A model generated the notes under the pieces. That model did no database searches. It saw nothing but the letters and a program-made list of their open reading frames with translations, and had not been told where the DNA came from. Positions 128-60,943 of a DNA stretch of 60,943 nucleotides are shown piece after piece. Location of the stretch: the IMG/VR virus record IMGVR_UViG_3300037483_000373, positions 1 to 60,943 of that record. The stretch is one strand, 5' to 3'. The translations under genes were made by a program, and so were the position numbers. This stretch comes from a virus. Its lineage: Duplodnaviria; Caudoviricetes. Each line of letters starts with the position of its first letter. The first letter of the stretch is position 1.

Positions 128-1148
128 GCCCCACCCGGCCCCAGAATGCAATGGATTGGATGAAGCGTTGCTTAAAATTTTCTGCCACCTCTTTCGGCAG
201 AGTATCGAGCAAGAATTTGACGAATGACTTCCACGTATGCCCCTTAGGCAGGGTGAAGCTACGATAGCTTAGCTGCTTGCCGTAAGTCGCGATGAAGTTC
301 GCTCCCTGCACTCTGGCGCAGAGCCGTGCCCAGACTTGTGGATCGATCACCCGGTACATGCCAAGGCTGGATTTAGACTCGCTCATAAATGGCGAAGCTA
401 CGCGCATATTGTGGACCGGTATCCCGGCCTTATAAAAGATGTCGTAGAGTTTGTTGTAGTCCCAACCGAATAGCTCGTTGGCGGTCCAGACGTCCTCTGT
501 CTGCCAATCGTAGATTGGATAGCAGTTGAATACGTGAGGAGCGTTCCGCTTGGTCCACATCATGCCGTCGCGTTGCTCGGTGCGAGTGTTCATGATCGCC
601 CGGAACCGGTTCAGCGACTCGGACGCCCTGATGCCAATCAGGTTGGCGGTGGTCCTGCCCTGCGCATACCACTCGCCGAACCCGTCCCAGAACCGGCCGT
701 AGTCCATGTTCTCTTCAAAAAAGTCGAACGGCGAATTGTCTATGTTTACCACGTATTCGTCGTCTGGCATAGGCCGAATCCACCGGTCCTCGTCCTCTCG
801 CCCCCAGCATTGCCAGTCGACAGCGTAGGAGCTAACCGTGCAAGGTAGAGTGATGGGCAGGCAACACCAATACACATCGAGGATGTCCAGGTCTGCCCGC
901 AGTATCTTGTGCATGAACTCCAGCGAGTCGGTGTAGTTCGCCTCGTTGTCCAAGATCATTATCCCGACCTTGCGGTCTGGGCAGTACTCTCTCACGTGGG
1001 CTATGACCAGGTTGAGCAGAACTCCACTATCCTTGCCACCAGAGAACGACACGTAGACTCGCTCGAACTGATCGAAGATCCACGCGATGCGCTCTCGCGC
1101 CGCTTCGTACACGTTCTTGTCTGGGTTGTAGACTCTGCGTGCTCTCAT
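1..1148 (-). CDS. ibrA: IbrA-like PAPS-reductase/DUF3440 protein, 5' part (wraps the origin, ends at 60657, ~435 aa)
   Basis: Absent from the ORF track; hand translation from ATG 1148 gives MRARRVYNPDKNVYEAARERIAWIFDQFERVYVSFSGGKDSG (PP-loop SFSGGKDS). Confidence 0.9.
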   Translation of the reverse strand, partial: MRARRVYNPDKNVYEAARERIAWIFDQFERVYVSFSGGKDSGVLLNLVIAHVREYCPDRKVGIMILDNEANYTDSLEFMHKILRADLDILDVYWCCLPITLPCTVSSYAVDWQCWGREDEDRWIRPMPDDEYVVNIDNSPFDFFEENMDYGRFWDGFGEWYAQGRTTANLIGIRASESLNRFRAIMNTRTEQRDGMMWTKRNAPHVFNCYPIYDWQTEDVWTANELFGWDYNKLYDIFYKAGIPVHNMRVASPFMSESKSSLGMYRVIDPQVWARLCARVQGANFIATYGKQLSYRSFTLPKGHTWKSFVKFLLDTLPKEVAENFKQRFIQSIAFWGRVGRGLPDEIIEQLESIGIEFHINGTTPHGGNDLRRVRIRHPPDH

Positions 1149-1238
1149 GCCCTGTCGTCCTTCGACGCATGTTCGTCGATTCTGCGGCACACTGACTCGT
1201 CCATTACGCGTCTCCCTTTAGTTCGCGATCAATGGCGC

Positions 1239-5315: not shown

Positions 5316-6569
5316 ATGATGGCTAAGGCAAGCCGCAAGGACTTTGACGGAGTTCCAACAGATAAGCTCATCGAAGCCGTGGCCATGGCCGAAGGGTCGG
5401 GCTATACCTTCGAGGGATATGTTAGGCTCCCGCGGATCTTTCTATCCGATCCGAAGGTGAGTTTCGCGCCGGTCGAGGCGATCGGAGTTCACGCGCTCTT
5501 GATGGACATGGCATGGACTGAGACGCCGGCCTGTTCGGTATCGGAGGAGATCATGGAGCTGGTCCTAGACCGTGCCTCAGATCGCGCGATGGCGGAGAGG
5601 TGGGTCCTAAAATCGTGGCAGCTCATAGGTGGGCGGTGGTGGCAACGCGGGTTGCTCAAATCATTCCTCTCGGCAGCCGTGTCGAACGCGTTCAAGGCGT
5701 GGGGTAGGGGTGACCGCGACAAGCTGCGCGAGTTCTTCCACCTCGTCGGGGTGTCGGCACCTGGTGGTGACTCATCGGCAAATCGCTATGAGTCATCAAA
5801 TTCTGATGATGACTCATCGGCAAATCGCTATGAGTCATCAAATTCTGATGATGACTCATCAGAGACATTAGATGAGTCATGTATCAAAGATGATGACACA
5901 CGACAGAATATGAATGGGAATATGAATATGAATGAAGAAGGATGCATCCAAGACACCAAGGCATGCGCGGAGCCGGCCGAGCCGGCTCCCACGCCGGAGG
6001 CACCTCCGGTGCTCTCGTTCCCGATCATCAAGGGCAAGAAATCATCGAAGTCTGAGTGGCACCTGACGGAGGAGCTACTCGACGAGCTGATGGAGTGCTA
6101 CGAGGGAACTCCGTTTGGCGATCGGGATAGGATCCTCGAAGCCATCCGGCAGTCAAAAGCATGGATCCTGGCAAACATGGCCAAGCGAAAGACGGCATCG
6201 GGGATGCCAAGGTTCATCACCGGATGGCTTCAGCGGGAGCAGAACTCAGGCAAGAACGGATCCTCGGGCAACGGCAAAGCGATCGGCAAGCCGTGCTCAG
6301 ACTGTGGCAGAGTCTCAGAGAGCCCAGAAGGCTGGCAGCCGTTCGGCATGTGCCTAGCATGCTCAACCAAGATGGAGTATCGCCCACACGGTTGCCCGCA
6401 CATAGACGGGAGAAGCCGATGGGATTCAATCCAGGAGAAGCACATCGTCAACGACGAGTGGGTGGCGCTCTACGGCGAGCCACCTGAGGGAGACACGATG
6501 GAAGTCAAGAGGCAGTTCCTACGCGGCGAGCTGCCGCCTAACCCGAAACCTGAGCAGGTTACACATTGA
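5316..6569 (+). CDS. Putative replication initiator (lambda O-like organisation)
   Basis: Precedes primase-helicase; central iteron region; C-terminal RFITGWLQREQ motif. Confidence 0.6.
   Translation: MMAKASRKDFDGVPTDKLIEAVAMAEGSGYTFEGYVRLPRIFLSDPKVSFAPVEAIGVHALLMDMAWTETPACSVSEEIMELVLDRASDRAMAERWVLKSWQLIGGRWWQRGLLKSFLSAAVSNAFKAWGRGDRDKLREFFHLVGVSAPGGDSSANRYESSNSDDDSSANRYESSNSDDDSSETLDESCIKDDDTRQNMNGNMNMNEEGCIQDTKACAEPAEPAPTPEAPPVLSFPIIKGKKSSKSEWHLTEELLDELMECYEGTPFGDRDRILEAIRQSKAWILANMAKRKTASGMPRFITGWLQREQNSGKNGSSGNGKAIGKPCSDCGRVSESPEGWQPFGMCLACSTKMEYRPHGCPHIDGRSRWDSIQEKHIVNDEWVALYGEPPEGDTMEVKRQFLRGELPPNPKPEQVTH
5768..5937. repeat. Iteron cluster, putative replication origin
   Basis: 42-bp unit x2.2 with GACTCAT/ATGAGTC inverted half-sites, then AT-rich GAATAT repeats. 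Confidence 0.7.
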
Positions 6570-19071: not shown

Positions 19072-22056
19072 ATGGCGAACGGTGGAATCCGCACCGCCTG
19101 CACCTATCCTAGAACACAACTGCTAGCCTGTCAAGCCACATTGAACGCACCAGAACATCCTCTCATCTTCGACCCTGCCAATCGGCCGGTGTCGTCCTCG
19201 CCTACAGTGCAGAAGCAAATGCGGGCGATGTCCGCCGAGCTGTCGAGGGTGAAGGGTTGGATGGACCTCGGCGGGCGTGGCTTCTGGGACGCGGCAACAG
19301 GCCTGCACAAGCGCAACATCTGGAAAGAGTGCGGGTATCCAGACGTTCTCACGATCGCGAACTACCGCAGCCTCTACGATCGAGGCGGCATCGCGAGCCG
19401 GATCGTCAGCGTCTATCCCAAGGCAGCGTGGCCCGGGATGTACATAGAAGAGGACGAGGATCCGAAGAACGTAACGCCGTTCGAAGCCTCTGCCGCGGCC
19501 CTGGAAGAGCGCTTGTCGCTCCTCAGCAGGGTCACTAAGTGCGACGTCCTGCGAGGCCTGGGGAGCTATTCAGTGCTTCTGATCGGAGCACCTGGCAAGA
19601 AGGGACAGAGTCCGGAAGAGATCCTCATGTCCGAGCTGACGAAGTCCAGCCGGCCAGAGACTCCCGACAAGCCCTCGGATCTGCTCTACCTCCAACCGGT
19701 GGCCGAAGATCGGGCCAAGATCGTCGAGTACAACTCCGATCCGACCTCACCGCGGCACGGCATGCCGGAGTTCTACGACATCACCCTCGGTGGCTCAACC
19801 GCTGACGGTGGCAACCTCGGCATCGGCACCCGTGGGATCTCTACCGGTAAGGTGTACAAAGTCCATTGGTCCCGCTTGATCCACATGGCCCGCAACTGTT
19901 TAGAGGACGAGGTTCTCGGCGAGCCTGAGCTGAAATCCGTGTGGAACTATTTCTGGGATCTTCTCAAGATCCATGGAGGTGGTGCAGAGGCAGCATGGAA
20001 GCGAGCGGATCCAGGCAGGCATATCGACATTCCACCGGACCTTGAGTTCGATACCACTGCCCAGAATGCGCTTCTCGACCAGTTCGACAGCCTTGACCAT
20101 GGGTTGAGCAAGAACATCACGACGCGTGGCGCCTCGCTTGCATTGCTTGGTGCTGGCGCAAAGGTGCAGGACTTCGGCAGCAACGCAGACGCGCTCCTGA
20201 AACTGATCGCAGGCACCAAGAACATCCCTATGCGCAAGCTGGTGGGCAGCGAACGCGGCGAGCTAGCTAGCTCCCAGGATGATGAGAATTGGTGGGACGC
20301 GGTCGATGACTTCAGAGACGAGCACTGCAAGCCCATCCTCAAGGGCAACGGCCGCGGGCTCTACGACCGCCTGATCACCTACGGGTACCTAGAGCCACCG
20401 GAGAAGTATGAGATCAAGTGGCCCCTCCGCGACGAGGACACGCTCGAAGCCAAGGCCGCGGTATGCGTCCAGCTCTCGACCGCCAACAAGGCGCAGTTCG
20501 ACGCAGGCGGTACCCCGCTCCTCAGTGGCGACGAGATCCGCGACCTGGTTCTCGACATGGAGCCGGGACAGATGCAGTCTCCACGCGAGGGTGAGAGCGG
20601 CTCCGGCTCATCCTCTGGCGACCGTGCCAGTGCAGACGACGAGGAAGCGGCAGGGGCCCGGTCTCTCGCACTCTACGACGTACAGGGACTGGAGCTACTC
20701 CCGCGGTTGACGGGGATGCCTGTTGTTGATAGGCTGTCTTCGCCGCCTGGTTGCTCGGTGCACTCCGGGTATGAAGGGACAGTGCAGAGACCTGAAAACG
20801 ATCCTGGCCTACCAGACCGCTGGGACGGCGCCTCAGTTGCCAGAGTAGCGAGTAGGGAATCTCCCGCCCAGGCGGCGCTTGCCTTCGAGGACGTGACCAA
20901 GGCGTCTCCCGAGCCTTCATGGAAGGCAGTACACCGCGCAGCCGACGCGAACGTCGATCCGCTCTCCGCCGCAGCCTTTGCCTACTACCAGGCAGTCCGC
21001 GATGAGGTCGACGAAGACGTGCTGGCGGAGGCATTCCTGCGCCTATCCGTCGCCGACGCGAACCACGAGCTAAACAGAGCCCTTGAGACCGTTTTGCCGG
21101 ACGCTCAGCGCCAGTTCGCCGCGCTCCTGAACATGGCCCTACTCGATGGCGCGCTTGCCTCCAGCCGCTCCTACAGAGCCCGAGGGCTGGCATCCTCCAC
21201 CAGTTTGCTCGACGAGGTAGCACCGGGCAGGCTTGAAGGCGTGGTGAATGGTCAGTTCGTCATCGCTACCGAGGTGATCGGCCCACTGCGGACGGGCAGG
21301 TACTACGAGATCGTGGTCAACGGTGAGCTGCGCTCCCACACCCGTACAGCAGCCGGCGCGCAGTCCTTCGCTGCAACGATACTCAATCAGCGAGACTTGC
21401 CGAAGTGGGCGATGGACGTGACGAATCCGAAGTCTCTCGCGTGGGCACGTACGCGCGCGGCCGAACTGATTACCGAGATCACGCCGGATACCAAGCTCGC
21501 CGTCCGCGCGATGATTGGCAACGGCTTCGAGTTGGGCATCCCTCCGCGCAAGCTGGCACAATCGATCAAGCAAGCGGTAGGCCTACGTACCGACCAGGTT
21601 GCTGCAATCCGCAACCTCCGAAAGGAAATGCAGGATGCGCGCGTGGGCGACTATATCACGCGCTTCCCGATCCGCCCCGGTGTCCGCGCCTCGCCGGGCT
21701 TCCGCGTCCGCGTGCCTGCGGGAGACCGTACCGCGTGGATTGAGAAGCAGACGGCGCGGTACACCCAGATGCAGCACCGGTATCGCTCGGTCATGATCGC
21801 CAGATCCGAGACGATGCGAGCCAGCGGGCAAGGTCAACGGGACATGTGGCGCCAGAACCGAGACCGCGGGTATCTCGACGCGGGGCAGAAACGGTTCTGG
21901 ATCGTGACGCCTGACAGTAGGCTACGCGAAGAGCATGCAGCCCACGAGGGCGAGCAGGTAGGACTTGATGAGCCTTGGCCCTGGGGCTACGAAGTCGGCG
22001 AGGAAATTCATTGCAGGTGCGGAGAAGGCCTGGTAGACCCTGAGGCGGCGAGCTAA
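19072..22056 (+). CDS. Portal (DUF1073-type) fused to Mu gpF/SPP1 gp7-like head morphogenesis protein; true start probably 19141-19219
   Basis: GYP..Y.RGGIA.RIV, G.PEFY, VHWSR, IP.RKLVG.ERGELAS..D; C-terminal IARSET, W....D.R.R..H, HCRC. Confidence 0.88.
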   Translation: MANGGIRTACTYPRTQLLACQATLNAPEHPLIFDPANRPVSSSPTVQKQMRAMSAELSRVKGWMDLGGRGFWDAATGLHKRNIWKECGYPDVLTIANYRSLYDRGGIASRIVSVYPKAAWPGMYIEEDEDPKNVTPFEASAAALEERLSLLSRVTKCDVLRGLGSYSVLLIGAPGKKGQSPEEILMSELTKSSRPETPDKPSDLLYLQPVAEDRAKIVEYNSDPTSPRHGMPEFYDITLGGSTADGGNLGIGTRGISTGKVYKVHWSRLIHMARNCLEDEVLGEPELKSVWNYFWDLLKIHGGGAEAAWKRADPGRHIDIPPDLEFDTTAQNALLDQFDSLDHGLSKNITTRGASLALLGAGAKVQDFGSNADALLKLIAGTKNIPMRKLVGSERGELASSQDDENWWDAVDDFRDEHCKPILKGNGRGLYDRLITYGYLEPPEKYEIKWPLRDEDTLEAKAAVCVQLSTANKAQFDAGGTPLLSGDEIRDLVLDMEPGQMQSPREGESGSGSSSGDRASADDEEAAGARSLALYDVQGLELLPRLTGMPVVDRLSSPPGCSVHSGYEGTVQRPENDPGLPDRWDGASVARVASRESPAQAALAFEDVTKASPEPSWKAVHRAADANVDPLSAAAFAYYQAVRDEVDEDVLAEAFLRLSVADANHELNRALETVLPDAQRQFAALLNMALLDGALASSRSYRARGLASSTSLLDEVAPGRLEGVVNGQFVIATEVIGPLRTGRYYEIVVNGELRSHTRTAAGAQSFAATILNQRDLPKWAMDVTNPKSLAWARTRAAELITEITPDTKLAVRAMIGNGFELGIPPRKLAQSIKQAVGLRTDQVAAIRNLRKEMQDARVGDYITRFPIRPGVRASPGFRVRVPAGDRTAWIEKQTARYTQMQHRYRSVMIARSETMRASGQGQRDMWRQNRDRGYLDAGQKRFWIVTPDSRLREEHAAHEGEQVGLDEPWPWGYEVGEEIHCRCGEGLVDPEAAS
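19106..19134 (-). promoter_or_regulatory. Motif promoter P5
   Basis: TTGACAGGCTAGC; TTGACA-17-TAGGAT. Confidence 0.8.
20707..20735 (+). promoter_or_regulatory. Internal promoter within the portal ORF linker
   Basis: TTGACG-17-TAGGCT. Confidence 0.65.
20741..20877 (+). ncRNA. Putative structured ncRNA nested in the portal ORF
   Basis: Begins at the predicted TSS; closing stem CGCCGCCTGG/CCAGGCGGCG, inner TTGCTCG/CGAGTAG and TGCACT/AGTGCA. Confidence 0.55.
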
Positions 22057-35466: not shown

Positions 35467-35673
35467 ATGAGCGCAGGAATGCTTTGTTTGAAGTGTCGAG
35501 AATACATGGCAAGGTGCAAGTGTGTGCAGCCAGCGCCGTCCACGGACGCCAAGAGGCCGCACAGCGGGGGAGATCTGGCGGTGATGATCAGAGACGCGTA
35601 CGCCGGGGCCGCAGCAGACGATATCCACTTGGACAAGTACGTCCCGTGGACTGGCGTCAGAGGTGGGTTCTAA
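35467..35673 (+). CDS. Small hypothetical protein
   Basis: SD GAGGTG, TAATG coupling. Confidence 0.5.
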   Translation: MSAGMLCLKCREYMARCKCVQPAPSTDAKRPHSGGDLAVMIRDAYAGAAADDIHLDKYVPWTGVRGGF

Positions 35674-38444
35674 TGCAAGACATCGCCGCAGTCCTACTCA
35701 CCTTCGACCGCTCACCGGGGCGGAACTACCTCGCCGAGACGCTGGGGAATCTCAAGCCGTCTCTTGATCTGGCGACGCGGCTGGAAGGGCCCGCCTCGAT
35801 TGTCGAGAACGGCGACTCGTGCGCCTTCGCGAGCGCTACCAAGATGCAGATATTCGGTCCAGGCGGGATCTTTTTTTGCTCTATCAAGGGGCCGCCTAAC
35901 GAAGCGGTGGCAGGCGCGCTAGACCTAACATCAGATTCGAAGTGGATCCTCTTCCTCGAAGACGACATCGACGTCTGCGGCAACTTCGTCGACAGCGCGG
36001 GCGCCTGGCTCGACGACTACGCAGACCCGGATATCCCGGTATACGCCCTCGGCGTGAACTCGCCGGCAGTGATGCAGCACGCGCGCAAGGGCATCCACGC
36101 CTGGCGGTACCCTACGGCTGACTTCTACGGCACCCAGGCGGTAGCCATCCGCGCCGAAGCTGCGCCCGAGATCGCCGCATACCTTCGCGAGCACTGCTAC
36201 CGCTACGGCGAACGAGGCGCGCAGTATGACCACCTGATCCGTGACTGGTTGCTTGAGCAGGGAGTAGATGAGCTGATCACGCCTTGCCCGAGCTTCGTGC
36301 AGCACATCGGGCGCACTAGCTCAATCGATCCGCGCGCGGTGATCCACATCTTCCCGAGCTTCCCAGGCAAGGCGTGGAGCTACCTTGCGGCGCGGCGAGG
36401 ATTCCACGGCGCGCGGGTGATGCAGGGAGAGTTGGACCGCGTCCACAATGTAGCTGTGCTGACTCCGTTTCGCAACGCTCGGGCCACCCTGCCGAAGTAC
36501 TTCTCACAGATCGCTGACCTACAGGGGGCGCTGCCAGGGCACATGACGTTGCGCCTCGTCGCGGCCGAGGGCGACTCACAGGACGGCACGCGAGAGCGCA
36601 TTCAAGAGTTGGCAGAACATCACCATGTATCACTCCAGCTTATCCCCACCGACCACGGTGGCGGCCCCTGGGGCAGTGTCGAGGACCCGGAACGGCTGCG
36701 CGCCATGTCTGGCGTGATGAATGCTGCGCTCGAAGCTGTGACCGAAGACGACGGCATCGTGGTATGGGTAATGTCCGATCTGGAGTGGGACGTGGAGACG
36801 ATGCTTCGGTTGATCGCGCAGGTGTCGAACCGCGAAGAGTGCCGCACCGATTCGGGTTACCCGATAGACATCGTCGCACCGATGACGTACATCAACGGCA
36901 TCTTCTACGACACTTGGGCCTATCGGGCTGGTGGCGAGCGGTTCACGATGGCCCCTCCGTACCACCCGGAACTGGTCGGCGCTGATCTTCCGGTTGAGAT
37001 CGACTCTGCCGGATCCTGCCTCGTGATGTCTGCCACCGTGGCGAAGTCTGCCCGCGCCAGCGACCTGGAAGCGGTGTCGTTCTGCAATCATGCACGTGGC
37101 ATGGGATTCACGGTCGCGGTAGATCCATCGCTCTCCATCCACCACCGGAGCCCGATCCAGGGCAAGTCGCTGCTTATCTTGGGCCAAGGTCCGTCGCATT
37201 GCACCGGGCTCTCGCGACCCATCCGCTACCTGCTCCCTGAACTGGCAGAGCGTGGCATCTCTCCTACCTTGATCGCCATCAACTACGACGGAGAGCCCCA
37301 CCCCCTGCCCTACAAGATCTGGCCGGCAGCGGTGAACGGTCAGCTTCCCATGGGTGAGCAGCGGCTCCTCAATCTCCTAGCCTCCGAGCACTTCGACGGC
37401 GTACTGATCCAGGCCGAGCCATGGAATATGCCTTCGTACCTTCGAGCTATCGACGCGCTTCCTGAAGGTGCGCCGCGTCCTCCGGTCATCGGATGGATCG
37501 GAGTGGACGGGGTGAACAACGACGGCGAGGCGCTCAACGGCCTTGACCACGTCGTGACCTGGACGCAGTTTGGCGCCGAAGATCTGCGCAAGGGTGGATA
37601 CGCTGGACCCATCTCGGTCGTGCCTCTCGGCGTGGACCTCGCCACCTATTACCCAGTGGACAAGACCGAGGCACGGGCCACGGTGCTGCCCAACCTGCCA
37701 GAAGGTGCGTTTGTCGTCGGCACGGTGGCCCGCAATCAGCGCAGGAAGAGAATCGACCTCATCGTCGAAACGTTCGCCCGGTGGATCGAGGCTGGCGGGG
37801 AGAACACAGAGAACGCCATTCTCTACCTGCATCTGTCCGGTGCCCGCGAGGGGTACGGCTACGACATCGGCGCACTCGTGCGGCATTGGGGCCTACGGGG
37901 CCGCGTGATGGTGTCTAACGGTCAAGAGCTGCCAGAGGCGACTCTCTGCTATCTCTACAGCTGCTTTGACGTGTACATCAACCTCAGCGAGGCCGAGGGG
38001 TGGGGGCTGCCAGCGATGGAGGCTGCGGCATGCGGAGTGCCGATCATCGTCCCAGAGTGGGGCGGGATCGCCGAATGGGCGCCAGACGAGGCGAAGATCT
38101 TCGTAGACTCCGCTTCCGCGTGCATGCCACTGCACCCGCAAAAGCGCTCAGGAGTGATCGGGATGACGCCGAACGTCGAGTCAGCCGTCGGGGCGATTAC
38201 CGTCAATGCGATTACCGATGCAGCCAAGGGCACACTGTGGCGCGACTCCGTCTCCGCCTACACCTGGGAGCGCTCTATTGCTGGTATACTGGCAGTCATA
38301 GAGGAGGTGATATCGGCCGCGCAGGGCTGCCCAGGCTCTCTAGCTGCCTCGAAAGCGCCCGCGAGGTCTACGGCTGGGATAGGCAAGACGAACTCGCCAG
38401 GTCTGAAGGATTCGCATGAAAGATCTGCCCAGAGGAGGTGCTAG
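35673..38444 (+). CDS. Three-domain glycosyltransferase (two GT-A domains + GT-B/GT4)
   Basis: FLEDD..VQHIG; TPFRN..EGDS.D.T..FYDTWA..SAGSC; GVD, VARNQRRK, EGWGLP.MEA. Confidence 0.88.
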   Translation: MQDIAAVLLTFDRSPGRNYLAETLGNLKPSLDLATRLEGPASIVENGDSCAFASATKMQIFGPGGIFFCSIKGPPNEAVAGALDLTSDSKWILFLEDDIDVCGNFVDSAGAWLDDYADPDIPVYALGVNSPAVMQHARKGIHAWRYPTADFYGTQAVAIRAEAAPEIAAYLREHCYRYGERGAQYDHLIRDWLLEQGVDELITPCPSFVQHIGRTSSIDPRAVIHIFPSFPGKAWSYLAARRGFHGARVMQGELDRVHNVAVLTPFRNARATLPKYFSQIADLQGALPGHMTLRLVAAEGDSQDGTRERIQELAEHHHVSLQLIPTDHGGGPWGSVEDPERLRAMSGVMNAALEAVTEDDGIVVWVMSDLEWDVETMLRLIAQVSNREECRTDSGYPIDIVAPMTYINGIFYDTWAYRAGGERFTMAPPYHPELVGADLPVEIDSAGSCLVMSATVAKSARASDLEAVSFCNHARGMGFTVAVDPSLSIHHRSPIQGKSLLILGQGPSHCTGLSRPIRYLLPELAERGISPTLIAINYDGEPHPLPYKIWPAAVNGQLPMGEQRLLNLLASEHFDGVLIQAEPWNMPSYLRAIDALPEGAPRPPVIGWIGVDGVNNDGEALNGLDHVVTWTQFGAEDLRKGGYAGPISVVPLGVDLATYYPVDKTEARATVLPNLPEGAFVVGTVARNQRRKRIDLIVETFARWIEAGGENTENAILYLHLSGAREGYGYDIGALVRHWGLRGRVMVSNGQELPEATLCYLYSCFDVYINLSEAEGWGLPAMEAAACGVPIIVPEWGGIAEWAPDEAKIFVDSASACMPLHPQKRSGVIGMTPNVESAVGAITVNAITDAAKGTLWRDSVSAYTWERSIAGILAVIEEVISAAQGCPGSLAASKAPARSTAGIGKTNSPGLKDSHERSAQRRC

Positions 38445-42776: not shown

Positions 42777-45700
42777 ATGGCTGTAAACATCGGCGCACTA
42801 GAGGGGACGATCAGCCTCAGGGACCTGTTCACCGGAAAGCTCGACAAGGCCGCCGATGGGCTTGAGACCTTTGCGCAGAAGTCGGAAAGGATCGGCCGGA
42901 AACTGTCGTCTACCGGGCAGTCTCTAACGCTTGCACTGACTGCTCCAATCGCCGCGGCCGGCGTTACTCTGGCCAAGCTGGCAGCGGATGCTGTCGAGTC
43001 TGAGTCCCTGTTCGAGGTCTCGTTTGCCGGGATGTCTGGAGCCGCAAGACAGTGGTCAGAGGACACATCCAAGGCACTCAAGCTGAATCAGTTCGAACTG
43101 CGGCGCTCAGTGGGCGTGATCTACACCATGACCGAGGCTATGGGGCTGAATCAGCAGGCGGCATTTGACATGTCTACGGGCGTGGTCGAGCTGGCCGGGG
43201 ATCTCGAATCGTTCTTTAACCTCAGAGCCGGCGAAGGCTTTCAAAAGCTCCAGTCTGGCCTGGTGGGCGAGACCGAGCCGCTCCGCGCGCTCGGCGTGGT
43301 GATCGACGAAGCGACGATCAAGGCCAAGGCGTACGAGGTGGGCATTGCCGCAGCAGGTGCCGAACTGACCGCGGCCCAGAAGGTTCAAGCTCGGTGGGCT
43401 ACGATCCTTGCCCAAACCTCAAAGGCGCAGGGCGACCTGGCCCGCACCCTGGAAAGTCCGGCAAATCGGCTGCGAGCGCTGCGCACAGAGCTTGTGCAGA
43501 CGCTGACGTTGCTCGCAATGAATCTGCTACCGATTTTCGAGAGAGTGCTCTCGGCGCTCGAAGGCATGGCGAAGATGATCGGCAAGCTCGCCGAGTGGTT
43601 CGGCAATCTGCCGCCCCCGGTTCAGCAGGTGACTGCTGCCGTTCTCGCACTGGTGGCAGCGCTGGGGCCTGTGCTTTTTATCGCAGGCCAGATCGCTATC
43701 GCGCTCAGCGCCCTTGGCGTGACTATGGCAGGTGTAGCAACTGCGTCATCTGCAACTATTGCCGTTCTTCTGGGCCCTGTCGGATGGGTGGCGGCTGGGA
43801 CAGCTCTTCTGCTTGCCTGGGAGCCGTCGAGAGAACTGATCCTCGATATCGGCGGCAGGGTGATCTCGACTCTGGTGTCTGCCGTGAAGGGCCTACTGTC
43901 CACCTTGGCAGACTGGTGGGAGTCAACCGAGAGGGTTCGCGCAGTTTTGCTCGAACTTGGCAAGATCGTAGGCGTCAAACTCGTCCGCGAGCTGTCCGCA
44001 GTCGTCCAAGTGGTCAAGGATGCCGCGAAGTGGATAAAGGATTTCTCGGCAGGCGTCGTGATCCTGGTAGAGGATTCAGAAGCGCTCGCAAAGGTAAACG
44101 GCAAGGTCGATAAGGCTTTCAGGGTTTTGGATGACTCTGCGGCCAGGCTGCTCGACACAATAAAGAAGATGGAGTATATCAAGACTGCGACCCATTTTTG
44201 GACGCAGTTCTTCAACAACATCAACGGCAAACTCGATTTCGCCGAGAGGTTCGGCGGAGCCGTGAAGGTCACCGAGGATGCTATAGCCGCTGCCAAGGCT
44301 GAACTCGTCGATTGGCATGCGCGTCTCGATGCCGCTGGGGTGCCGACCAAGAAAGCCGCAGATGACATCAAAGAGCTGGGCGGAGCGTTTGTCGATCTGA
44401 AGGCCCAGGTCAGCGACATGGAAGAGCAAGTGTCGCTGATGACGAGGTACGCCCTGAGCGCCGAGCAGGCGGCCATTGCGGTATCGATTCTCCACGATGC
44501 GGAGAGCGGTGGGGCGACGATCGAAATGATCCTCGATCAGCTTCGCGCCATGGAGTTGTTCGAGCAACAGGTCGAGGCGGTCACTGAGCGCTTCGCGGAG
44601 TTGCGCGCCGAGATCGGGCAGCTAGGGGCGTGGAAGGCGGTTGAAGCGATCGCGCTGCCAGTGCTTACCGTGGAGACCCCGTCTCTGACGATGAGTGATG
44701 CCGGGCAAGAGGAGATCTGGGCAGCCATCCTAGACGGAGTCAAGGAAGTCGACGAGGCCCAGAAGAAGCTCAACAAGACGGCAGAAGAAAATCTCCAACT
44801 CGCGTACCGGCAGGCCGAAATCTGGACCGATGTCGGCGACGTGCTCGCCGACGTGTTCGACGATCTGGAAAATGGATTGGGAGATCTCATCTATGATCTC
44901 GGCAAAGCGGCTGTAGCGTGGGAAAAGTACGCGGCAGCGAAGCAATACGGGACCGATGCAGATATCGCGGCCGCGCGCCAACAGCTAGCCAACTCGGTTG
45001 GCTCGGCAGTCGGCAACTACCTCGGCGGCGCCCTTGCCGGTGGTGGCCAGTCGGGCTTCGGTGGCGAGCAAGCCGGCTCCTACTCGGATGAAGGGGCTGA
45101 ACTCGGCTCCTACTTCGGTGGCATTTGGGGTGCTGTCGGCGCCGTCTTGGGTGGGTTGATCTCCAAAAGCGGGGATGAGGCGCGCGTGGCCATCGAGCAG
45201 TTCGGCTCGACGATCCAGGCTGCTGTCGTATTCGCTGAAGGCGGCCTCGGCGACGCCGCGAACGAGCTTGCTGCCGGATTCTCGGCCTTTATGTCGGATA
45301 TCCAGGCTCAGTTCGGGCTCGCAATTCAAAACACCGGCGGGATCCAGTTCGACTTCACCGACCGGGGCCTTCTCCAGGTATCCGGAGCCGAGATCGGCAC
45401 GGCCGCGTTCGAGACTATGGGAGAGGCCGCAGCCTACGCCGCCGAGCAAATCTTGGGCTTGAATGCGGGCACGAACAATCTCGGCGACAACATGACCGCT
45501 CTACTCCAGTCGTTGGGTGGAGAGGCCACCTTCGACAGCCTTGAGGAGCTAGGCACCGCGCTACAGCTCGCCGCTGAGGCAGACGGCCAGGCGATGAACG
45601 GAGAGTCTTCTGCCATCGCAGCGGTCACCCGGGCCCGAGAAGCTGAGATGGAGATCGCGACCAAGACCGGCATCGCCTACTCGGCCGTGATCGCCGTGGC

Positions 45701-48700
45701 CGATCGGCGCCTTGCTCAGATCCGCGAAGAGGTCGAGGCGACCCGGGATTCCATTTTCGGCGTGAGCAACAACCTGTCGGCGCTCCAGGCAGCATCGGCC
45801 AGCATGCTCAGCTACAACGCCGGGATCGAGGCTGAGACAAATGCCCGCATGGCGGCGATCACCTCCTCCGAAGGCTATGCCGTTGCACTGGCAGCGGCGG
45901 CCGGCGACGCCGAAGCCGCCATCGCGAGTCTGCGCTCGGGCTCCGCAGCAGGGGCTGGACCGGTGGGCGGCGAAAGCGCCGGCGTCACCGACAGCATGAG
46001 CGGACTGACCGACTCTCTCGTCGCACTGAACAACGCCGCCATTGACGCAGCGGAGTCTGCGTATCACGCGAGCCTGGAGCAGAGCGGGCTCGCCGGGTGG
46101 ATGGCCGAGTCGGCGGCCGCGGCCGAAGCCGAGGCTGCCGCTCGGGCAGTGGCTGCACAGGCGGGAGAAGAGTCGGCATCTGGCGTTGCCGCCGTGATCG
46201 ACAACGTCCTCGGCTTCATCGACGCCCTGCGCACCGGCCTGGATGGCCTTGCGTCCGGGACTGACGGGATCACGCAGGCCATGATCGACGCTGGCGGGGC
46301 CGCGGGCACCATGGAGGGGTTCCTCAATCAAGGCGCAGACGCCATGGGATCTTGGATCCAGGCCACCGGTATGGCTGACATCTACAGCGACCAAAAGGAG
46401 GCTATGCACCAGCAGCGGCGGGATATCCGCGAGCAGATCAATGACACAGAGCGGGCCCGAGAGGCGACTGATGCCCTTGTCGACTCCCTGGGCGACATCC
46501 CCCAGGCGTTCTCCATGGACGAGATCGCCGCGATCTGGGAGAAAGGCGCAGCCGACGCCGGGCTAGCACTCCTCAGCATGATTCGCCAGGTGCGCGGCGA
46601 GGAATGGGGCGCGGCTCAAGAACGCCTCCTGATGGCCTCGGTATTCAAGCTCCAGCTTGCGGTGCAATTGCAGTCGGTCTATCAGCTGTTGGCAGCGACA
46701 GAGCTCCTCTCTGAGGCTACGCGCGCGGTATTGACGGGCTTGGCGGCGGAAGCTGAGCGGATCCTCGGCGACAACAGCATCAACATCCGTGTGGGTGGCA
46801 GACCCAGAGGGGGCGGAGGCGACAACGGAGAAGCGCAAAGGCGGCAGGAGTTCCGCGACCAATTCGCGCTGGACGTGGCGGATACCGCCGAGCTTCTGAA
46901 TGGCTGGGGCGCCGCGCTGGTGGACATGCGCCAAGGCTTGCGCGACATCACGGCTGGAGCCCAGGAAGCTCGCGAGATGGGCGTATCGGAAGCCCTGATC
47001 GCACAGTACCGCGCTCAGCAGCTCGACATCCTCCGCAACACGATGGAGGAAGGGCTCAGGAACACGATATCGGGAGGTGGCGACTCGGCCGGAGGGATCT
47101 TCGACCGCTATCAAGAAGCGGCCACAGCGGCCTGGGAGCTGGCCGGAGATCGCGCTGCGGAGTTCGGCACCGAGGTTTGGCAGGAAATGGCGCCGATTGC
47201 CGAGCTGATACGTCAAGCGTTCGGTGTCGAGCTGACAGATTTTGTCAGCGACCAAGTTAACGGCCTGGTCAGTGCGGGAGATCTCGACGGCATAGTTGCC
47301 TTGCAGGGTGAGCTTGAGCGTATGTCCCATGGAGTACGCCGAGTAGGGGACATGATCGTCGGCACGCTAGGGGGCGACGCCCTGACGATGTCGGCAGCGG
47401 AATACGCCGCAGCAATCGAGGCAACGCAGGAAGGTATCCGCCAACTCGGTCGCAGCCTGGTCGACAGCTTCGAGACTCCGCTGCTCGACGCGCAAGCCAG
47501 CGCCGACGACTTTGCCGAGCGGCTGGAGATGCTGCGCGAGATCTTCGCCCTGACCGGCGAGGGCGCCGAGGCTCTTGGAGAGATCGCCGACCATGCGAAT
47601 CAGTCGCTACTCGGCTCGATTGCCGGGCTCTACGATCAGCTTGGGGCGACCGAGGAAGCTGAGGCGATCAAGCAGCAGTTGGCTAGGGCCACCTTCGAAC
47701 TGCAACTGAATCAAATGCGTATCCTGTATGAGAGTCAGCTTGCGCTGGGTATCGTCTCGGAGTCGACACAGGCCGCGATGGAATCGTTCTTCGAGTACGT
47801 GGCGGGTGTGAATCTGGACGACATCTTCGCTCCTGGCGCGGGGAGTGGCCCCTCCTACGGGGGCGGTGGCGGGACTCCATACGACCCGCAGCAGTACACC
47901 GACTCGATTGATGGCCTATTCAACGCCATCACCGACACGATCGACGGATGGCTGCGAGTAGGCCAGGGGCCGCTTCTCAGCCAAGCGCTGCAAATGAACA
48001 GCGACCTTGAGCGGGCGCGCCAGCAGATGACCGACCTGCTGGAGATGGAGAACAGCCCGCGGACACGCGCGTTGCGCGACCAGATGGAGGGCGCGTTTGC
48101 GGAGATGTCGCAAGCGTGGGCCGACGAAGTGCTCGCCAGCTTGACCGACGCGGGAACCGGGCTTCAGTCGGAATTCGACGACCTCATCGAGCACTTTGCC
48201 GACATCTCGGCAGCCTTTGCCGAACTCGGCATCCTGGCAGAGAACGCAGAGGTCCTTGCCGCGGCACAGGCTGCCGCCCTGCAAAACTTCTGGGACAACG
48301 CGACCTCTGGCATTCAGGGGATCATTGATCGGCTCACGGGGGTGGAGAGTGGCCGAGCGCCCGTGGATCTGCTTGCGGAGCAGCAGGCCGTGGTGCAGGA
48401 TCTCTTCGAGCGCGCGATGGGTGGCGACCTGTCGGCGCTGGAGCAGCTCGACGCGCAGTCCGAGGACTTCCTCGACCTCATCGGCGAGGTGTTCGGCTCT
48501 GGGCGGGCCGGTGGGATCCTGCGGGACCAGCTCTTGGCGATGCTCCAACAGGTAGCCGGGATTGATCCCAGCGCAATCCTCGGCGCGGACGGCGCACCGA
48601 TCGGCGGAGGTGACGGTGGTGGCGTATTCGATCCGCCAGGCGATGGCGGGCGGGGTGATATCCTAGGTGGGCTGATTGAGGAGCCGTACGTGTTGCGCGG

Positions 48701-48950
48701 CTCAGACCTCATTGCCCAGCCTTTCAACCTGGCCGGGTACCTCGAAGGTGGTCCGTCATTCGAATTCAGACAGGCCCTCAAGGAGAACCGACGCGAGATG
48801 GAAAAGGCAGAGAGAGACAGGGAACGGGAGCGCATCCGTAGAGACCAGATCCGCATGGAGGTAGACACGTCGCAGCGCGGCGCCTTGATCCGTGCCACGC
48901 GTGGAATCGGCGTGCGACCCATCAACGAATCCATCAGGTACGGCGCGTGA
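42777..48950 (+). CDS. Tape measure protein (2057 aa)
   Basis: Length, Ala-rich helical composition, GETEPL..LG, QGD.ART..S.AN, hydrophobic segment. Confidence 0.93.
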   Translation: MAVNIGALEGTISLRDLFTGKLDKAADGLETFAQKSERIGRKLSSTGQSLTLALTAPIAAAGVTLAKLAADAVESESLFEVSFAGMSGAARQWSEDTSKALKLNQFELRRSVGVIYTMTEAMGLNQQAAFDMSTGVVELAGDLESFFNLRAGEGFQKLQSGLVGETEPLRALGVVIDEATIKAKAYEVGIAAAGAELTAAQKVQARWATILAQTSKAQGDLARTLESPANRLRALRTELVQTLTLLAMNLLPIFERVLSALEGMAKMIGKLAEWFGNLPPPVQQVTAAVLALVAALGPVLFIAGQIAIALSALGVTMAGVATASSATIAVLLGPVGWVAAGTALLLAWEPSRELILDIGGRVISTLVSAVKGLLSTLADWWESTERVRAVLLELGKIVGVKLVRELSAVVQVVKDAAKWIKDFSAGVVILVEDSEALAKVNGKVDKAFRVLDDSAARLLDTIKKMEYIKTATHFWTQFFNNINGKLDFAERFGGAVKVTEDAIAAAKAELVDWHARLDAAGVPTKKAADDIKELGGAFVDLKAQVSDMEEQVSLMTRYALSAEQAAIAVSILHDAESGGATIEMILDQLRAMELFEQQVEAVTERFAELRAEIGQLGAWKAVEAIALPVLTVETPSLTMSDAGQEEIWAAILDGVKEVDEAQKKLNKTAEENLQLAYRQAEIWTDVGDVLADVFDDLENGLGDLIYDLGKAAVAWEKYAAAKQYGTDADIAAARQQLANSVGSAVGNYLGGALAGGGQSGFGGEQAGSYSDEGAELGSYFGGIWGAVGAVLGGLISKSGDEARVAIEQFGSTIQAAVVFAEGGLGDAANELAAGFSAFMSDIQAQFGLAIQNTGGIQFDFTDRGLLQVSGAEIGTAAFETMGEAAAYAAEQILGLNAGTNNLGDNMTALLQSLGGEATFDSLEELGTALQLAAEADGQAMNGESSAIAAVTRAREAEMEIATKTGIAYSAVIAVADRRLAQIREEVEATRDSIFGVSNNLSALQAASASMLSYNAGIEAETNARMAAITSSEGYAVALAAAAGDAEAAIASLRSGSAAGAGPVGGESAGVTDSMSGLTDSLVALNNAAIDAAESAYHASLEQSGLAGWMAESAAAAEAEAAARAVAAQAGEESASGVAAVIDNVLGFIDALRTGLDGLASGTDGITQAMIDAGGAAGTMEGFLNQGADAMGSWIQATGMADIYSDQKEAMHQQRRDIREQINDTERAREATDALVDSLGDIPQAFSMDEIAAIWEKGAADAGLALLSMIRQVRGEEWGAAQERLLMASVFKLQLAVQLQSVYQLLAATELLSEATRAVLTGLAAEAERILGDNSINIRVGGRPRGGGGDNGEAQRRQEFRDQFALDVADTAELLNGWGAALVDMRQGLRDITAGAQEAREMGVSEALIAQYRAQQLDILRNTMEEGLRNTISGGGDSAGGIFDRYQEAATAAWELAGDRAAEFGTEVWQEMAPIAELIRQAFGVELTDFVSDQVNGLVSAGDLDGIVALQGELERMSHGVRRVGDMIVGTLGGDALTMSAAEYAAAIEATQEGIRQLGRSLVDSFETPLLDAQASADDFAERLEMLREIFALTGEGAEALGEIADHANQSLLGSIAGLYDQLGATEEAEAIKQQLARATFELQLNQMRILYESQLALGIVSESTQAAMESFFEYVAGVNLDDIFAPGAGSGPSYGGGGGTPYDPQQYTDSIDGLFNAITDTIDGWLRVGQGPLLSQALQMNSDLERARQQMTDLLEMENSPRTRALRDQMEGAFAEMSQAWADEVLASLTDAGTGLQSEFDDLIEHFADISAAFAELGILAENAEVLAAAQAAALQNFWDNATSGIQGIIDRLTGVESGRAPVDLLAEQQAVVQDLFERAMGGDLSALEQLDAQSEDFLDLIGEVFGSGRAGGILRDQLLAMLQQVAGIDPSAILGADGAPIGGGDGGGVFDPPGDGGRGDILGGLIEEPYVLRGSDLIAQPFNLAGYLEGGPSFEFRQALKENRREMEKAERDRERERIRRDQIRMEVDTSQRGALIRATRGIGVRPINESIRYGA

Positions 48951-58763: not shown

Positions 58764-59137
58764 GGCGCGTCCCGCCACTTCTCGGCCCTGGCCTGCCCTT
58801 CGGCATACGCAGTGACTGTGTCCATGGTGAGACTACCCGCATAGATGAAGTAGCACTCCCGAGCGAACTTCGCCGCGAGCCGAGACTTGCCGTTGCGGGT
58901 GAGCCGGGAGTCTCGATCTAGTCGGCATGCGTATCGCCAGCCTTCGAGGACCATAGCGAGAAAGTACGTCCCACCGGCGCCACGGGGCTTGCTAGCGCCG
59001 TTGCCGTGGATGGCAGTGGAGTAGTTCTTACCGAGCCTCTGAACCTCTTGTACGTCTACGTATCCGACAGGCGTCTCCACGATGAACGTGGCGCCATGCT
59101 GGAAGGTCTTCGCGCACGCTGTGCGGGTGATTTTCAT
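58760..59137 (-). CDS. Hypothetical protein, paralogue family member 3
   Basis: GWRY...NGKSRLAAKFA. Confidence 0.55.
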   Translation of the reverse strand: MKITRTACAKTFQHGATFIVETPVGYVDVQEVQRLGKNYSTAIHGNGASKPRGAGGTYFLAMVLEGWRYACRLDRDSRLTRNGKSRLAAKFARECYFIYAGSLTMDTVTAYAEGQARAEKWRDAP

Positions 59138-59370
59138 CTGTTTTCTATCTCCATTCTTTTGATGGCGTTGTACCACTCATTATGCCTTGGCTGGAAGCCA
59201 AGCGACAAGAGTTGCGTATCGTTATTCAGAAGCGCAAGGGTAATTGCCCGATACGAGGGGGCAAGCCCTTCATGCTCCAAAACTTCCGGTACCTCGTCGG
59301 GGATGTCTTCTGGGTATCCTTGCCGGGACCACTTCGACACGTATTTGGCAACACGTTTCCCAACTCCCAT
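59134..59370 (-). CDS. Stand-alone IbrA C-terminal-like domain
   Basis: Y..KW.RQGYPEDIPDE, APSYR.I..ALL.ND, LGF. Confidence 0.75.
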   Translation of the reverse strand: MGVGKRVAKYVSKWSRQGYPEDIPDEVPEVLEHEGLAPSYRAITLALLNNDTQLLSLGFQPRHNEWYNAIKRMEIENR

Positions 59371-59711
59371 GCAGTAACTACCTCCTGCGCAACTCTGTTT
59401 GCCGCGGCTTGTTCTGAGCCTGTTAGGTACCGGAATCCGTAACGAAACCTCCTTGGCACCGACGTTGCCAGGCACATCGATGACTGCCCTATCCAGGCTA
59501 CTCGGTTCATTCTGACGTTGCTAAGAAAGTGCTCGCACGAATGGCGCCACGTTTTTACCACGCGCCGGGCAGAGTCTCGGAACCATTCGCTGTCGCGCAG
59601 GAAGTACGCGTACAGCTCTGCGGCTTCGTCGTCTGCCAAGTCGCAGGTGGTCGAATACATGCCGTGTCGGTAGCACTCCCACAGCCACCACGGGCGCCAG
59701 ATCCGCCTCAC
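59226..59711 (-). CDS. IbrAB-associated hypothetical protein
   Basis: W.WEC...GM, W..SCEHFL, NR.AWIGQ; overlaps next gene by 145 bp. Confidence 0.65.
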   Translation of the reverse strand: MRRIWRPWWLWECYRHGMYSTTCDLADDEAAELYAYFLRDSEWFRDSARRVVKTWRHSCEHFLSNVRMNRVAWIGQSSMCLATSVPRRFRYGFRYLTGSEQAAANRVAQEVVTAWELGNVLPNTCRSGPGKDTQKTSPTRYRKFWSMKGLPPRIGQLPLRF

Positions 59712-60649
59712 TCTTCACCGTCCAGATCTATCCAGTCGTCGCCTAGCTCATCGCCGCCCTCTATCTCGGCTTCCCAGCTAGCCGAAAAGTCTCGGTTCTG
59801 AAACAGCGAAGCCAGTCCGGTGATCTGCTTTAGCCGGAGAAGTTCGTCCTGGCTCATTCCGATGTGCTTGCAGATCCACCGGTCGCCTTTCCCCATCTCG
59901 ACCAGTTCCAACACGATGGTCGACATCAGCTCGATATTGTGCGTGCCCCTGGCCCTGTTGTGGCGAATGGTCGACGCCATGCGGTCGCCCATCTCTTTGT
60001 CGATCACGACGACCGGCAGCATGCCGCGCTCGCGCTCTCGGATGCGCTCACTGTTCTTCAGTATCAGGAACCGGTGGAACCCGTCGACGACGATGTACTT
60101 GTCGTTCTTTTCGTCATAGAAGGTGACTACGGGCTGGGTGTAGCCATCCTCCCAGATAGACGTTTCCAGCAACTCCATCTCGGGCGGCGCCACCGTGTTC
60201 GGGTTGTAGTCGTTCGCTTGCACCTTGTCGATCGGTACCGGGACCACGCCATAGACCGGCGAGACGAATGCCCCATATGACCTGTTCTCGTCATGCAGCT
60301 CGTCGCCCACCAGCGCGGGGCGGAAAACAGAGATCAGGACACTGTCCTCCAGGGCCTGGAACGTGTGCGGGTCGGACTTGCCTACGGCGTAGGCCACGCC
60401 TGGCTCGATCAGGTGCGACTCGTCAGTTATCTCGTTGATCAGCATCCCGGCGCCTTCAACACAGAAACACACTTCAGCATGGTTCGTGTAATGCCACCTC
60501 TGTGGCTCTCCCTTCGGCACCTCGGTTTTGAGCACCGAGAACCCTAGTTCGTCCGATTCGAGAAACGCTCGGAGGCTAACGAATCCGCCATTGGGGCAGA
60601 CAACCTCTCTCGTGGTTCCGCGAAGCTCTTCGGTGTCTACTACTTTCAT
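59708..60649 (-). CDS. ibrB: Ectoine-synthase-like cupin fused to IbrB (ParB/Srx) domain
   Basis: N: GFS, HY.NH.E..CVEG.G, PG..YA...D.H, VF.P.L.G.E.HDE; C: SPVY.V, ANDYNPN.VAPPEM, DGYTQP, VDGFHR, ASTIRHNRARG.H. Confidence 0.88.
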   Translation of the reverse strand: MKVVDTEELRGTTREVVCPNGGFVSLRAFLESDELGFSVLKTEVPKGEPQRWHYTNHAEVCFCVEGAGMLINEITDESHLIEPGVAYAVGKSDPHTFQALEDSVLISVFRPALVGDELHDENRSYGAFVSPVYGVVPVPIDKVQANDYNPNTVAPPEMELLETSIWEDGYTQPVVTFYDEKNDKYIVVDGFHRFLILKNSERIRERERGMLPVVVIDKEMGDRMASTIRHNRARGTHNIELMSTIVLELVEMGKGDRWICKHIGMSQDELLRLKQITGLASLFQNRDFSASWEAEIEGGDELGDDWIDLDGEE

Positions 60650-60656
60650 GATCGCC

Positions 60657-60943
60657 TCACAGGTTTTTGTATTTCTGGCTGATTTCACGCTGGCGTTGTT
60701 GCTGAGAAAGCGTGGGCTGGAGTCCAAGGTACTTGCACGTGTGGTCGTTCTTCATGATCGCCATGGCAAACCGTTTCCATGAAGTCACCATCGAGGGGTG
60801 AGTCTTCAGCTCGTCCAGGTGGTCCGGAGGGTGGCGTATCCTGACCCTCCGCAGATCATTTCCGCCGTGTGGCGTAGTGCCGTTGATGTGGAATTCGATC
60901 CCGATGGATTCCAGTTGCTCGATGATCTCGTCAGGCAGCCCCC
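60657..60943 (-). CDS. ibrA: IbrA-like protein, 3' part
   Basis: ...VTSWKRFAMAIMKNDHTCKYLGLQPT...KYKNL*, the typical IbrA C-terminus, in frame with 1-1148. Confidence 0.9.
   Translation of the reverse strand, partial: GLPDEIIEQLESIGIEFHINGTTPHGGNDLRRVRIRHPPDHLDELKTHPSMVTSWKRFAMAIMKNDHTCKYLGLQPTLSQQQRQREISQKYKNL
60817..60943. repeat. Terminal overlap, copy 2
   Basis: Identical to 1-127. Confidence 0.97.

Follow-up and report, generated by a model that had tools for sequence, protein, structure and literature searches.

An ectoine synthase-like cupin fused to IbrB in a translationally coupled four-gene phage cassette

The closest described relatives of the gene considered here, an open reading frame (ORF) that joins a cupin of the ectoine synthase (EctC) family to IbrB in the 60,943-bp viral record IMGVR_UViG_3300037483_000373 (Duplodnaviria; Caudoviricetes; IMG/VR; hereafter the window, which is the whole record in its own coordinates), are found in cultured phages. 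Gp104 of Mycobacterium phage Gaia, named ‘ectoine synthase/ParB multidomain protein’ in GenBank, shares 66.6% identity with the window protein over residues 1–295 (94% of the query). Within Gaia gp103–gp107, a gene for a 3′-phosphoadenosine-5′-phosphosulfate (PAPS) reductase/IbrA protein lies directly upstream of the fusion, and homologues of two small genes of the window, ORF161 and ORF78, lie downstream as gp106 and gp107, as in the window; Gaia differs by one additional small gene, gp105, which separates the fusion from gp106 and for which the window has no counterpart, and its host and remaining genome are unrelated. The gp103–107 region of phage Nebkiss is of the same type, its gp105 being annotated as GIY-YIG-like, and neither the Gaia nor the Nebkiss cassette has a recorded function. 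Pseudoalteromonas phage XCL1123 has the same order of PAPS reductase, cupin, IbrB and ORF161-like genes, followed by an unannotated ORF78-like frame, but makes its cupin (130 aa) and its IbrB (178 aa) from two genes, both of which carry the name ‘ectoine synthase/ParB multidomain protein’. In the Escherichia coli prophage pair IbrA/IbrB (PhiR5_2) the two genes are likewise adjacent and the IbrB tail is conserved, but the cupin is missing and a tblastn search detected no ORF161-like gene. A chromosomal pair, YbdN (PAPS reductase/DUF3440) and YbdM (ParB-like), as described in the accessible text of PMC9068703, is likened to IbrA/IbrB by this annotation only, and also comes without a cupin.

In the window, the minus strand of 59708..60649 carries an uninterrupted ORF of 313 aa with the N-terminus MKVVD. 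The fusion comes second in a phage cassette of four translationally coupled genes, IbrA, cupin-IbrB, ORF161 and ORF78 (Table 1): the TGA stop of IbrA lies 7 nt before the ATG of the fusion, the GTG start of ORF161 overlaps the TGA stop of the fusion (GTGA), and the ATG of ORF78 is preceded at 10 nt by AGGAGG, inside the ORF161 tail. A first-pass annotation, made from the sequence alone, had described an EctC-like N-domain joined without a stop to a complete IbrB in an IbrAB locus, and both parts of that description hold, with 105.2 bits to Ectoine_synth and 277 bits to phrog_2159 on the one ORF, and a gene with PAPS_reduct and DUF3440 domains (IbrA) 7 nt upstream. An extended form of 339 aa, starting at a TTG (to 60727), was rejected because it overlaps the IbrA stop and because relatives begin at ATG. 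An assembly or frameshift artefact was likewise rejected, since 68 of 80 independent loci (the best 80; see below) have the same uninterrupted ORF.

The N-terminal domain is a specific EctC-family cupin and not a generic one. It scored 105.2 bits against Ectoine_synth (PF06339; E 3.6e-30, residues 27–152 of the 339-aa form, profile positions 1–124 of 127), for which the Pfam cut-off is 27, compared with 23.6 bits against the generic Cupin_2 profile, which is under the cut-off of 27.2; the objection that the domain might be an ordinary cupin is thereby answered. The NCBIfam model for ectoine synthase, PRK13290, was more selective: the window protein reached 106.2 bits, under the cut-off of 128, five tested representatives with the EctC signature reached 177–198 bits, and two stand-alone members of the IbrB-linked cupin clade described below passed (P0122, 142 bits; P0129, 155 bits). 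When sequences of solved structures in the PDB were searched, those of EctC were the sole strong matches (5bxx, E 1.6e-17, and 1e-31 with a profile). Structure prediction, which had been proposed as a check, gave the same answer: the AlphaFold2 (AF2) model of the cupin, with a predicted local distance difference test score (pLDDT) of about 90, superposed on 5bxx_B with a template modelling (TM) score of 0.95 and a root-mean-square deviation (rmsd) of 1.2 over 115 columns, and by VIA it was closest to EctC 5ono_A (Z 18.1, rmsd 1.9, 121 residues aligned), the next cupin having a Z of 13.4. Among three EctC motifs noted at first pass, WHYTNHAE and VFRPALVGDELHDE are present as described; the third was one residue off, and reads YAVGKSDPH (YA....D.H).

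Conservation of the active site was counted over 121 sequences, namely the window protein and its 120 best relatives, with equivalences taken from HMMER alignments to 5bxx and 5onm and residue roles from the accessible text of PMC6344544. The iron triad of EctC, Glu57, Tyr84(85) and His92(93), is retained as E59, Y87 and H95, the first in 120/121 sequences (one is N-terminally truncated) and the other two in 121/121. The substrate and product contacts Ser23, Arg25, Thr40, Tyr52 and Phe106 correspond to S25, R27, T42, Y54 and F109, of which the first four are kept in 120/121 and F109 in 121/121. At other positions there are consistent differences. The position of Trp21 (F23 in the window protein) is Phe in 120/121, and that of Asn38 is Leu in the window protein and Thr in 109/121. 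Two extra cysteines, C61 and C63, in the strand that follows the metal-binding Glu, are invariant in 120/121, and C18 is near-invariant in the cupin clade. We read this pattern of residues as that of an EctC-type iron enzyme that is probably active, on a substrate related to but different from that of EctC.

A phage-borne EctC might simply be an auxiliary metabolic gene, boosting compatible-solute synthesis in the host, with its fusion to IbrB incidental; the Ectoine_synth score well over cut-off would suit such a role, as would the fact that the stand-alone clade members P0122 (142 bits) and P0129 (155 bits) pass the NCBIfam cut-off of 128. We regard this as extremely improbable. The window protein itself remains under that cut-off (106.2 vs 128), and Trp21, which according to the accessible text of PMC6344544 is completely conserved in 437 bona fide EctC proteins and is needed for activity (9.7% in W21A), is Phe in all but one of the 121 sequences. 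The cupin is tied to IbrA in 79/80 loci, and Mycobacterium smegmatis is among the hosts of its cultured carriers. Searches of the whole 60,943-bp phage record with TIGR02406 and TIGR02407 gave no match, in agreement with the earlier observation that ectA and ectB are absent from it. The earlier view that the cupin is no osmolyte enzyme is thus supported by linkage to IbrA, by the lack of ectAB and by the replacement of Trp21.

Relationships among the cupins were consistent with a lineage of their own. An exhaustive search with the cupin alone gave 327 representatives of clusters (E 1e-3 or better), and in a FastTree phylogeny of 117 domains (printed without support values, 4 gappy domains having been removed beforehand) the IbrB-linked cupins grouped together, fused and stand-alone forms interleaved, as a single clade apart from a group bearing a W / H-or-N / E-V-C signature. 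Short stand-alone relatives numbered six in the word-based search, and their diversity was supplied by the exhaustive search instead. Mean pairwise identity was 63% for the cupin versus 81% for IbrB, indicating that the cupin evolves faster than the domain to which it is joined. A separate group of proteins, 250–280 aa in length, consists of two tandem EctC-like cupins with E-N-(I/V) after the metal-binding Glu (P0134, P0137, P0138, P0169, P0174 and others).

The fusion recurs massively, which disposes of the objection that it might be a one-off. A word-indexed protein search scored at least 8000 candidates, and the best 120 were 64–85% identical to the window protein over most of the query; all had PF06339 and most also had PF02195. 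A scan of IMG/VR returned at least 577 pattern matches, at least 574 of them confirmed, and the best 80 loci supplied the locus counts given here. The cupin was present in 80/80, as part of a single ORF (295–313 aa) in 68, as a split gene in 11 and, in one locus, truncated by the contig end. Splitting was genuine: in the 11 loci the frame is closed by real stop codons and reopened, behind a ribosome-binding site, by an ATG placed exactly at the linker, before a conserved SPVY motif. At one split locus (L083:3144-3506 and downstream) the gene after the cupin has approximately 40 extra N-terminal residues before the usual start of IbrB. The partners were almost as constant as the cupin itself, with IbrA detected in 79 loci, ORF161-like genes in 77 and ORF78-like genes in 76 (tblastn, E 1e-4 or better), several of the misses coming from loci whose sequence stops shortly past the fusion; gene order was permuted in 7/80 loci, with the genes still together.

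Outside IMG/VR, 227/50,697 records of cultured phages matched, and 4/227 covered at least 80% of the query, these being Gaia (two records), Nebkiss and XCL1123. Species-representative bacterial genomes gave at least 581 confirmed matches; the cupin occurred in three of the best 80 loci, all in metagenome-assembled genomes (MAGs), and the other 77 encoded plain IbrB. Set against its presence in 80 of the best 80 viral loci, this indicates that the fused form is essentially a phage feature. The closest fused homologue from a bacterial bin among the best 80 (L089, a Planctomycetota MAG contig of 59,709 bp; 79% identity) was considered as a link to a host and rejected, because neither its terminase protein nor its terminase–portal DNA is shared with the window, so that it gives no host assignment. 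Cassettes that comprise IbrB, an ORF161-like gene and IbrA with no cupin are found in Microcystis phage Mwe-JY13 and Pseudomonas phage Amjad_SA. From these, and from the plain IbrB of most bacterial loci, we conclude that the cupin was joined to a core set of genes as an accessory module.

The IbrB half was recognised by its phrog_2159 match (277 bits) and by identity to known IbrB proteins: 50% (E 7e-49) with the one annotated in Escherichia phage PhiR5_2, and 59–63% over residues 123–295 with those of Streptococcus phages. It contains an invariant D189-G190-x-H192-R193 box (DGFHR), followed by a helical region that resembles a helix-turn-helix (HTH). Matches of this half to ParB, Noc and SbnI were weak; the box aligns with GERR of ParB and DGVHR of SbnI (E 0.0055 to 0.13), and an alignment to Helicobacter pylori ParB, also with a weak E-value, extends through the HTH region. 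The C-terminal tail has five invariant residues (L282, F283, F288, S291 and W292) and is also conserved in IbrB of E. coli phage. Among the longer IbrB relatives (P0278–P0296), IbrB is combined with a LAGLIDADG endonuclease (P0285–P0288), MutS domains III–V (P0289) or DUF4379 (P0281).

An HTH-like region invites a regulatory explanation, in which IbrA and IbrB activate phage or prophage expression and the cupin is a ligand sensor that tunes DNA binding by IbrB, rather than an enzyme. The GenBank entries for PhiR5_2 and phiAQ113 (‘Co-activator of prophage gene expression IbrA/IbrB’) point in this direction, and cupin-plus-HTH regulators, for example 1y9q, are among the structural neighbours. 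We think it improbable nonetheless: a mere sensor would have no need of the EctC triad and substrate contacts, which 120 to 121 of the 121 sequences retain unchanged, the PP-loop of IbrA is invariant, and an effect on expression could itself stem from DNA modification.

IbrA, interrupted in the record by its ends (see below), matched PAPS_reduct at 41.8 bits and DUF3440 at 146.7 bits on the side that starts at 1148, with DUF3440 matching the C-terminal part at 50.1 bits. The PP-loop motif SGGKDS was invariant in 24/24 sequences, as were Cys95, Cys96, Cys103 and Cys277, and Cys114 was nearly so; identity to the annotated IbrA of PhiR5_2 was 37%. No close relative was found among solved structures, where matches were confined to the PP-loop motif (LarE, E 0.15; CysH, E 0.96).

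Matches of IbrA to DndC were partial and weak in two models (E 2.6e-8 and 7.6e-7), and there was a similarly weak match to BrxP (E 7e-5). These matches raise the question of sulfur chemistry of the Dnd kind, in which IbrA would insert sulfur in the backbone or a base, IbrB would act as DndB does, and the Cys-rich cupin would help with sulfur or redox handling; the invariant Cys95, Cys96 and Cys103 of IbrA, its nearly invariant Cys114, and the clade-specific C61 and C63 of the cupin together with C18 could be accommodated in such a scheme. It is nevertheless quite improbable in our view, given that the DndC match (31 bits) spans only about 70 profile positions and that an EctC-type Lewis-acid dehydratase would have no obvious role in sulfur insertion. 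In a survey confined to the cassette genes, no homologue of a cysteine desulfurase, of DndD or of DndE came to light. PADLOC gave no match for the other three cassette proteins.

That IbrA and IbrB act together is suggested by modelling. When IbrA (382 aa) and the fusion were modelled together the score was 0.74, and none of 3 controls rose above 0.00; this mark is reached by 58/80 solved complexes and 2/110 mismatched pairs, rates that hold only roughly for the custom alignments used here. At least 58% of contacts were in common between runs, and partner pLDDT was at least 72. The confident interface involves residues 278–284, 286–297 and 305–310 of the fusion chain, facing the N-terminus of IbrA and its residues 179–245, and supports docking of the IbrB C-terminal tail, which has low confidence in the monomer model, on IbrA. 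Independent support for the coupling comes from nature, in the form of single-chain IbrA-IbrB fusions (549–601 aa), IbrA domains being found in 10/20 longer relatives.

ORF161, the third gene of the cassette, had no match in Pfam, NCBIfam, PHROGs or PADLOC. It represents a conserved family of phage proteins whose genes always neighbour IbrA/IbrB. AF2 predicts it to be all-helical from residue 1 to about 120 (pLDDT 95–98), with a disordered tail in the overlapping part. Fold searches gave no solved relative (Foldseek against the PDB, best E 1.3; VIA-align against 48,161 chains, best Z 4.7), and BFVD gave one match, to an unnamed viral protein of 116 aa. Leads in the ESM Atlas towards an integrase N-terminal domain were weak (0.84–0.85) and, being unsupported by the fold searches, were rejected. 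Homologues of ORF161 are Gaia gp106 and the neighbour gene in XCL1123. ORF78 belongs to phrog_15645, which carries no functional annotation, and has homologues in Gaia gp107 and in the unannotated frame of XCL1123. Its sequence is also similar to the final ~70 residues of IbrA as annotated in PhiR5_2 and Mwe-JY13, and to the tail of the window's own IbrA (BLASTP E 3e-7); by this similarity ORF78 is a paralogue of the IbrA/DUF3440 C-terminal tail. Short IbrA proteins (PhiR5_2, Mwe-JY13) contain an ORF78-like segment within IbrA.

What the cassette does must be argued from the domain identities, conserved active-site residues, gene linkage and pattern of fusion and fission that we observed, together with the model-level support for binding between IbrA and IbrB. 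The explanation that we favour, while holding it to be somewhat short of an even bet, is an ATP-dependent nucleic-acid modification module in which the cupin serves as tailoring enzyme, the target, chemistry and order of steps being what we infer. IbrB, as a putative nucleotide-binding protein of ParB/Srx type with an HTH-like region, would recruit the machinery to nucleic acid, with the DNA of the phage itself as the likeliest target, and would hold IbrA through the conserved C-terminal tail. IbrA, as a PP-loop ATP pyrophosphatase, would adenylate a position on a base, or on the group to be attached. The cupin, taken to be catalytically competent and tethered in the same complex, would then carry out an iron-dependent step of EctC type on the attached or donor moiety, either an amide/amine cyclocondensation or the reverse hydrolysis. 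That the cupin is an accessory tailoring module, and not an osmolyte enzyme, is likewise our leading but tentative view. The proposal in the first-pass annotation that the cupin makes or tailors the adduct of a modified base or backbone remains, like DNA modification itself, an inference.

One specific form of this scheme can be drawn from RNA biology. The PP-loop enzymes of tRNA, TilS, ThiI and MnmA, adenylate a base carbonyl; were IbrA to do the same on phage DNA or tRNA, an amine-bearing group could be added and an amidine ring then closed or opened by the cupin, producing a hypermodification not described before. We judge this unlikely as it stands. If true, it would be the first ectoine-synthase chemistry in nucleic-acid modification, and would give the IbrAB/YbdNM family a biochemical function.

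Several points weigh against a module that modifies nucleic acid. A nucleotide or a small metabolite might just as well be the target, and the retained R27, T42 and Y54, which would be expected to bind a free amino-acid-like ligand, appear to suit a small molecule no worse than a substrate bound to a polymer. Support for a ParB-type function in IbrB is weak, with Pfam ParB_N at 18.9 bits, under its cut-off of 26.3, and a match to ParB 4umk at E 0.0055; to judge from the alignments, the DGFHR box is as close to that of SbnI, a small-molecule kinase of ParB/Srx fold, as to that of ParB. Confident contacts in the complex model are restricted to the IbrB tail, the cupin having none on IbrA, and the predicted TM score (pTM) of the fusion model is 0.42, so that the arrangement of its domains is not fixed. 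The historical annotation of IbrA/IbrB, moreover, is that of a ‘co-activator of prophage gene expression’.

Some of these points lead to a pathway in the small-molecule or nucleotide pool, where a diffusible metabolite is made or destroyed and no polymer is touched directly. IbrB would then be a ParB/Srx-fold kinase, IbrA an adenylating ligase and the cupin a cyclase or hydrolase; candidates for the metabolite would be a cyclic amidine derived from an amino acid, a modified nucleotide precursor or a signalling molecule of the host. Contacts of the free alpha-amino-acid type (R27, T42 and Y54) are kept in 120/121 sequences, DGFHR of IbrB aligns with DGVHR of SbnI, which NCBIfam names O-phospho-L-serine synthase, and the stand-alone cupin genes in 11/80 cassettes are compatible with a diffusible intermediate. 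The SbnI match is, however, not significant (E 0.049 to 0.13), IbrB aligns, if weakly, with ParB through the HTH region, and the surroundings of the cassette are modules for DNA replication and recombination. A search of the 80 loci, aimed only at IbrA, the fusion, ORF161, ORF78 and three further neighbours in the window (ORF138, the RuvC-like gene and AAA_24), showed no conserved gene for a transporter or for precursor supply. We consider such a pathway a minority possibility, to be taken seriously, and retain the modification of nucleic acid as our working explanation.

The record has an exact direct terminal repeat of 127 bp (1..127 = 60817..60943), and is thus a circular assembly with an arbitrary start, as a result of which the IbrA gene is split over both ends (1148 to 1, then 60816 to 60657). 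Annotation of the linear record would give two IbrA fragments. The IbrA frame is continuous with 3..1190, and an upstream GTG at 1190 is a possible alternative start. Neighbours of the cassette are replication and recombination genes, encoding an AAA_24 protein, a primase/polymerase, a RuvC-like resolvase and an HNH protein. Elsewhere on the plus strand, three structural genes are unusual (19072..22056, 35484..38444 and 42777..48950): a protein of 994 aa combines portal and head-morphogenesis parts (phrog_146 + phrog_3517), one of 986 aa has a glycosyltransferase-like C-terminal part (phrog_2170), and the third ORF is 2057 aa long. A 417-aa ORF with no Pfam match (5316..6569, plus strand) contains an exact tandem duplication of a 14-residue unit rich in Ser and Asp.

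Table 1. Features of the IbrA, cupin-IbrB, ORF161 and ORF78 cassette in the 60,943-bp window.
Feature	Coordinates	Strand	Basis
EctC-family cupin domain, residues 1–128	60266..60649	-	Ectoine_synth 105.2 bits, 5bxx, AF2 fold
IbrB half, residues 129–313 and stop codon	59708..60265	-	phrog_2159, PhiR5_2 IbrB
Conserved IbrB C-terminal tail, residues 278–297	59759..59818	-	Conservation and complex model
IbrA N-terminal 382 aa: SGGKDS, PAPS_reduct, start of DUF3440	1..1148	-	ATG at 1148
IbrA C-terminal end (DUF3440 tail) and stop	60657..60943	-	DUF3440 50.1 bits
ORF161, cassette partner	59226..59711	-	GTG start, overlaps fusion stop
ORF78, small gene in another frame, overlapping the ORF161 tail	59134..59370	-	ATG at 59370

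To our knowledge no modification is known for IbrAB, and a literature search with subscription journals and supplements outside its scope found no paper on the cupin-IbrB fusion or on the biochemical function of IbrA/IbrB. The novelty implied at first pass is lower than it seemed, because GenBank entries for Gaia gp104 and XCL1123 already name the architecture, and the window adds one more member to that family. The interest lies rather in the pair itself. IbrA/IbrB-type pairs are among the commonest unexplained gene pairs of phages and prophages (227/50,697 phage records; at least 574 viral and at least 581 bacterial matches), and the cupin branch offers a good handle on their chemistry, combining one well-understood family reaction, an intact active site and both fused and split forms, with a cultured, non-pathogenic carrier, phage Gaia on Mycobacterium smegmatis, as a model. 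Should the cassette modify DNA or RNA, a new enzyme class would enter phage nucleic-acid modification and IbrAB would be explained; should it not, a function would still be assigned within the ‘orphan EctC’ problem, as that is set out in the accessible text of PMC6344544.

A protein of ParB/Srx fold beside a DNA-modifying enzyme, as is proposed for IbrB and IbrA, is a recurrent arrangement, seen in DndB/DndC, in DpdB/DpdA and in ParB/5mYOX. According to the accessible parts of the respective sources, DpdB acts with DpdA (PMC12839542), and a phage ParB activates the 5mYOX thymine dioxygenase on dsDNA (PMC13229309). The catalytic partners in these three systems are different, however, and none has an EctC-type cupin. 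With EctC itself (Sphingopyxis alaskensis 5BXX/5BY5; Paenibacillus lautus 5ONM/5ONN/5ONO) the phage cupin has in common the fold, the iron ligands and five contacts, at 32–36% identity. It differs in Phe for Trp21, Leu or Thr for Asn38, two added cysteines and a PRK13290 score under cut-off, and its fusion or linkage partners are IbrB and IbrA in place of EctA and EctB.

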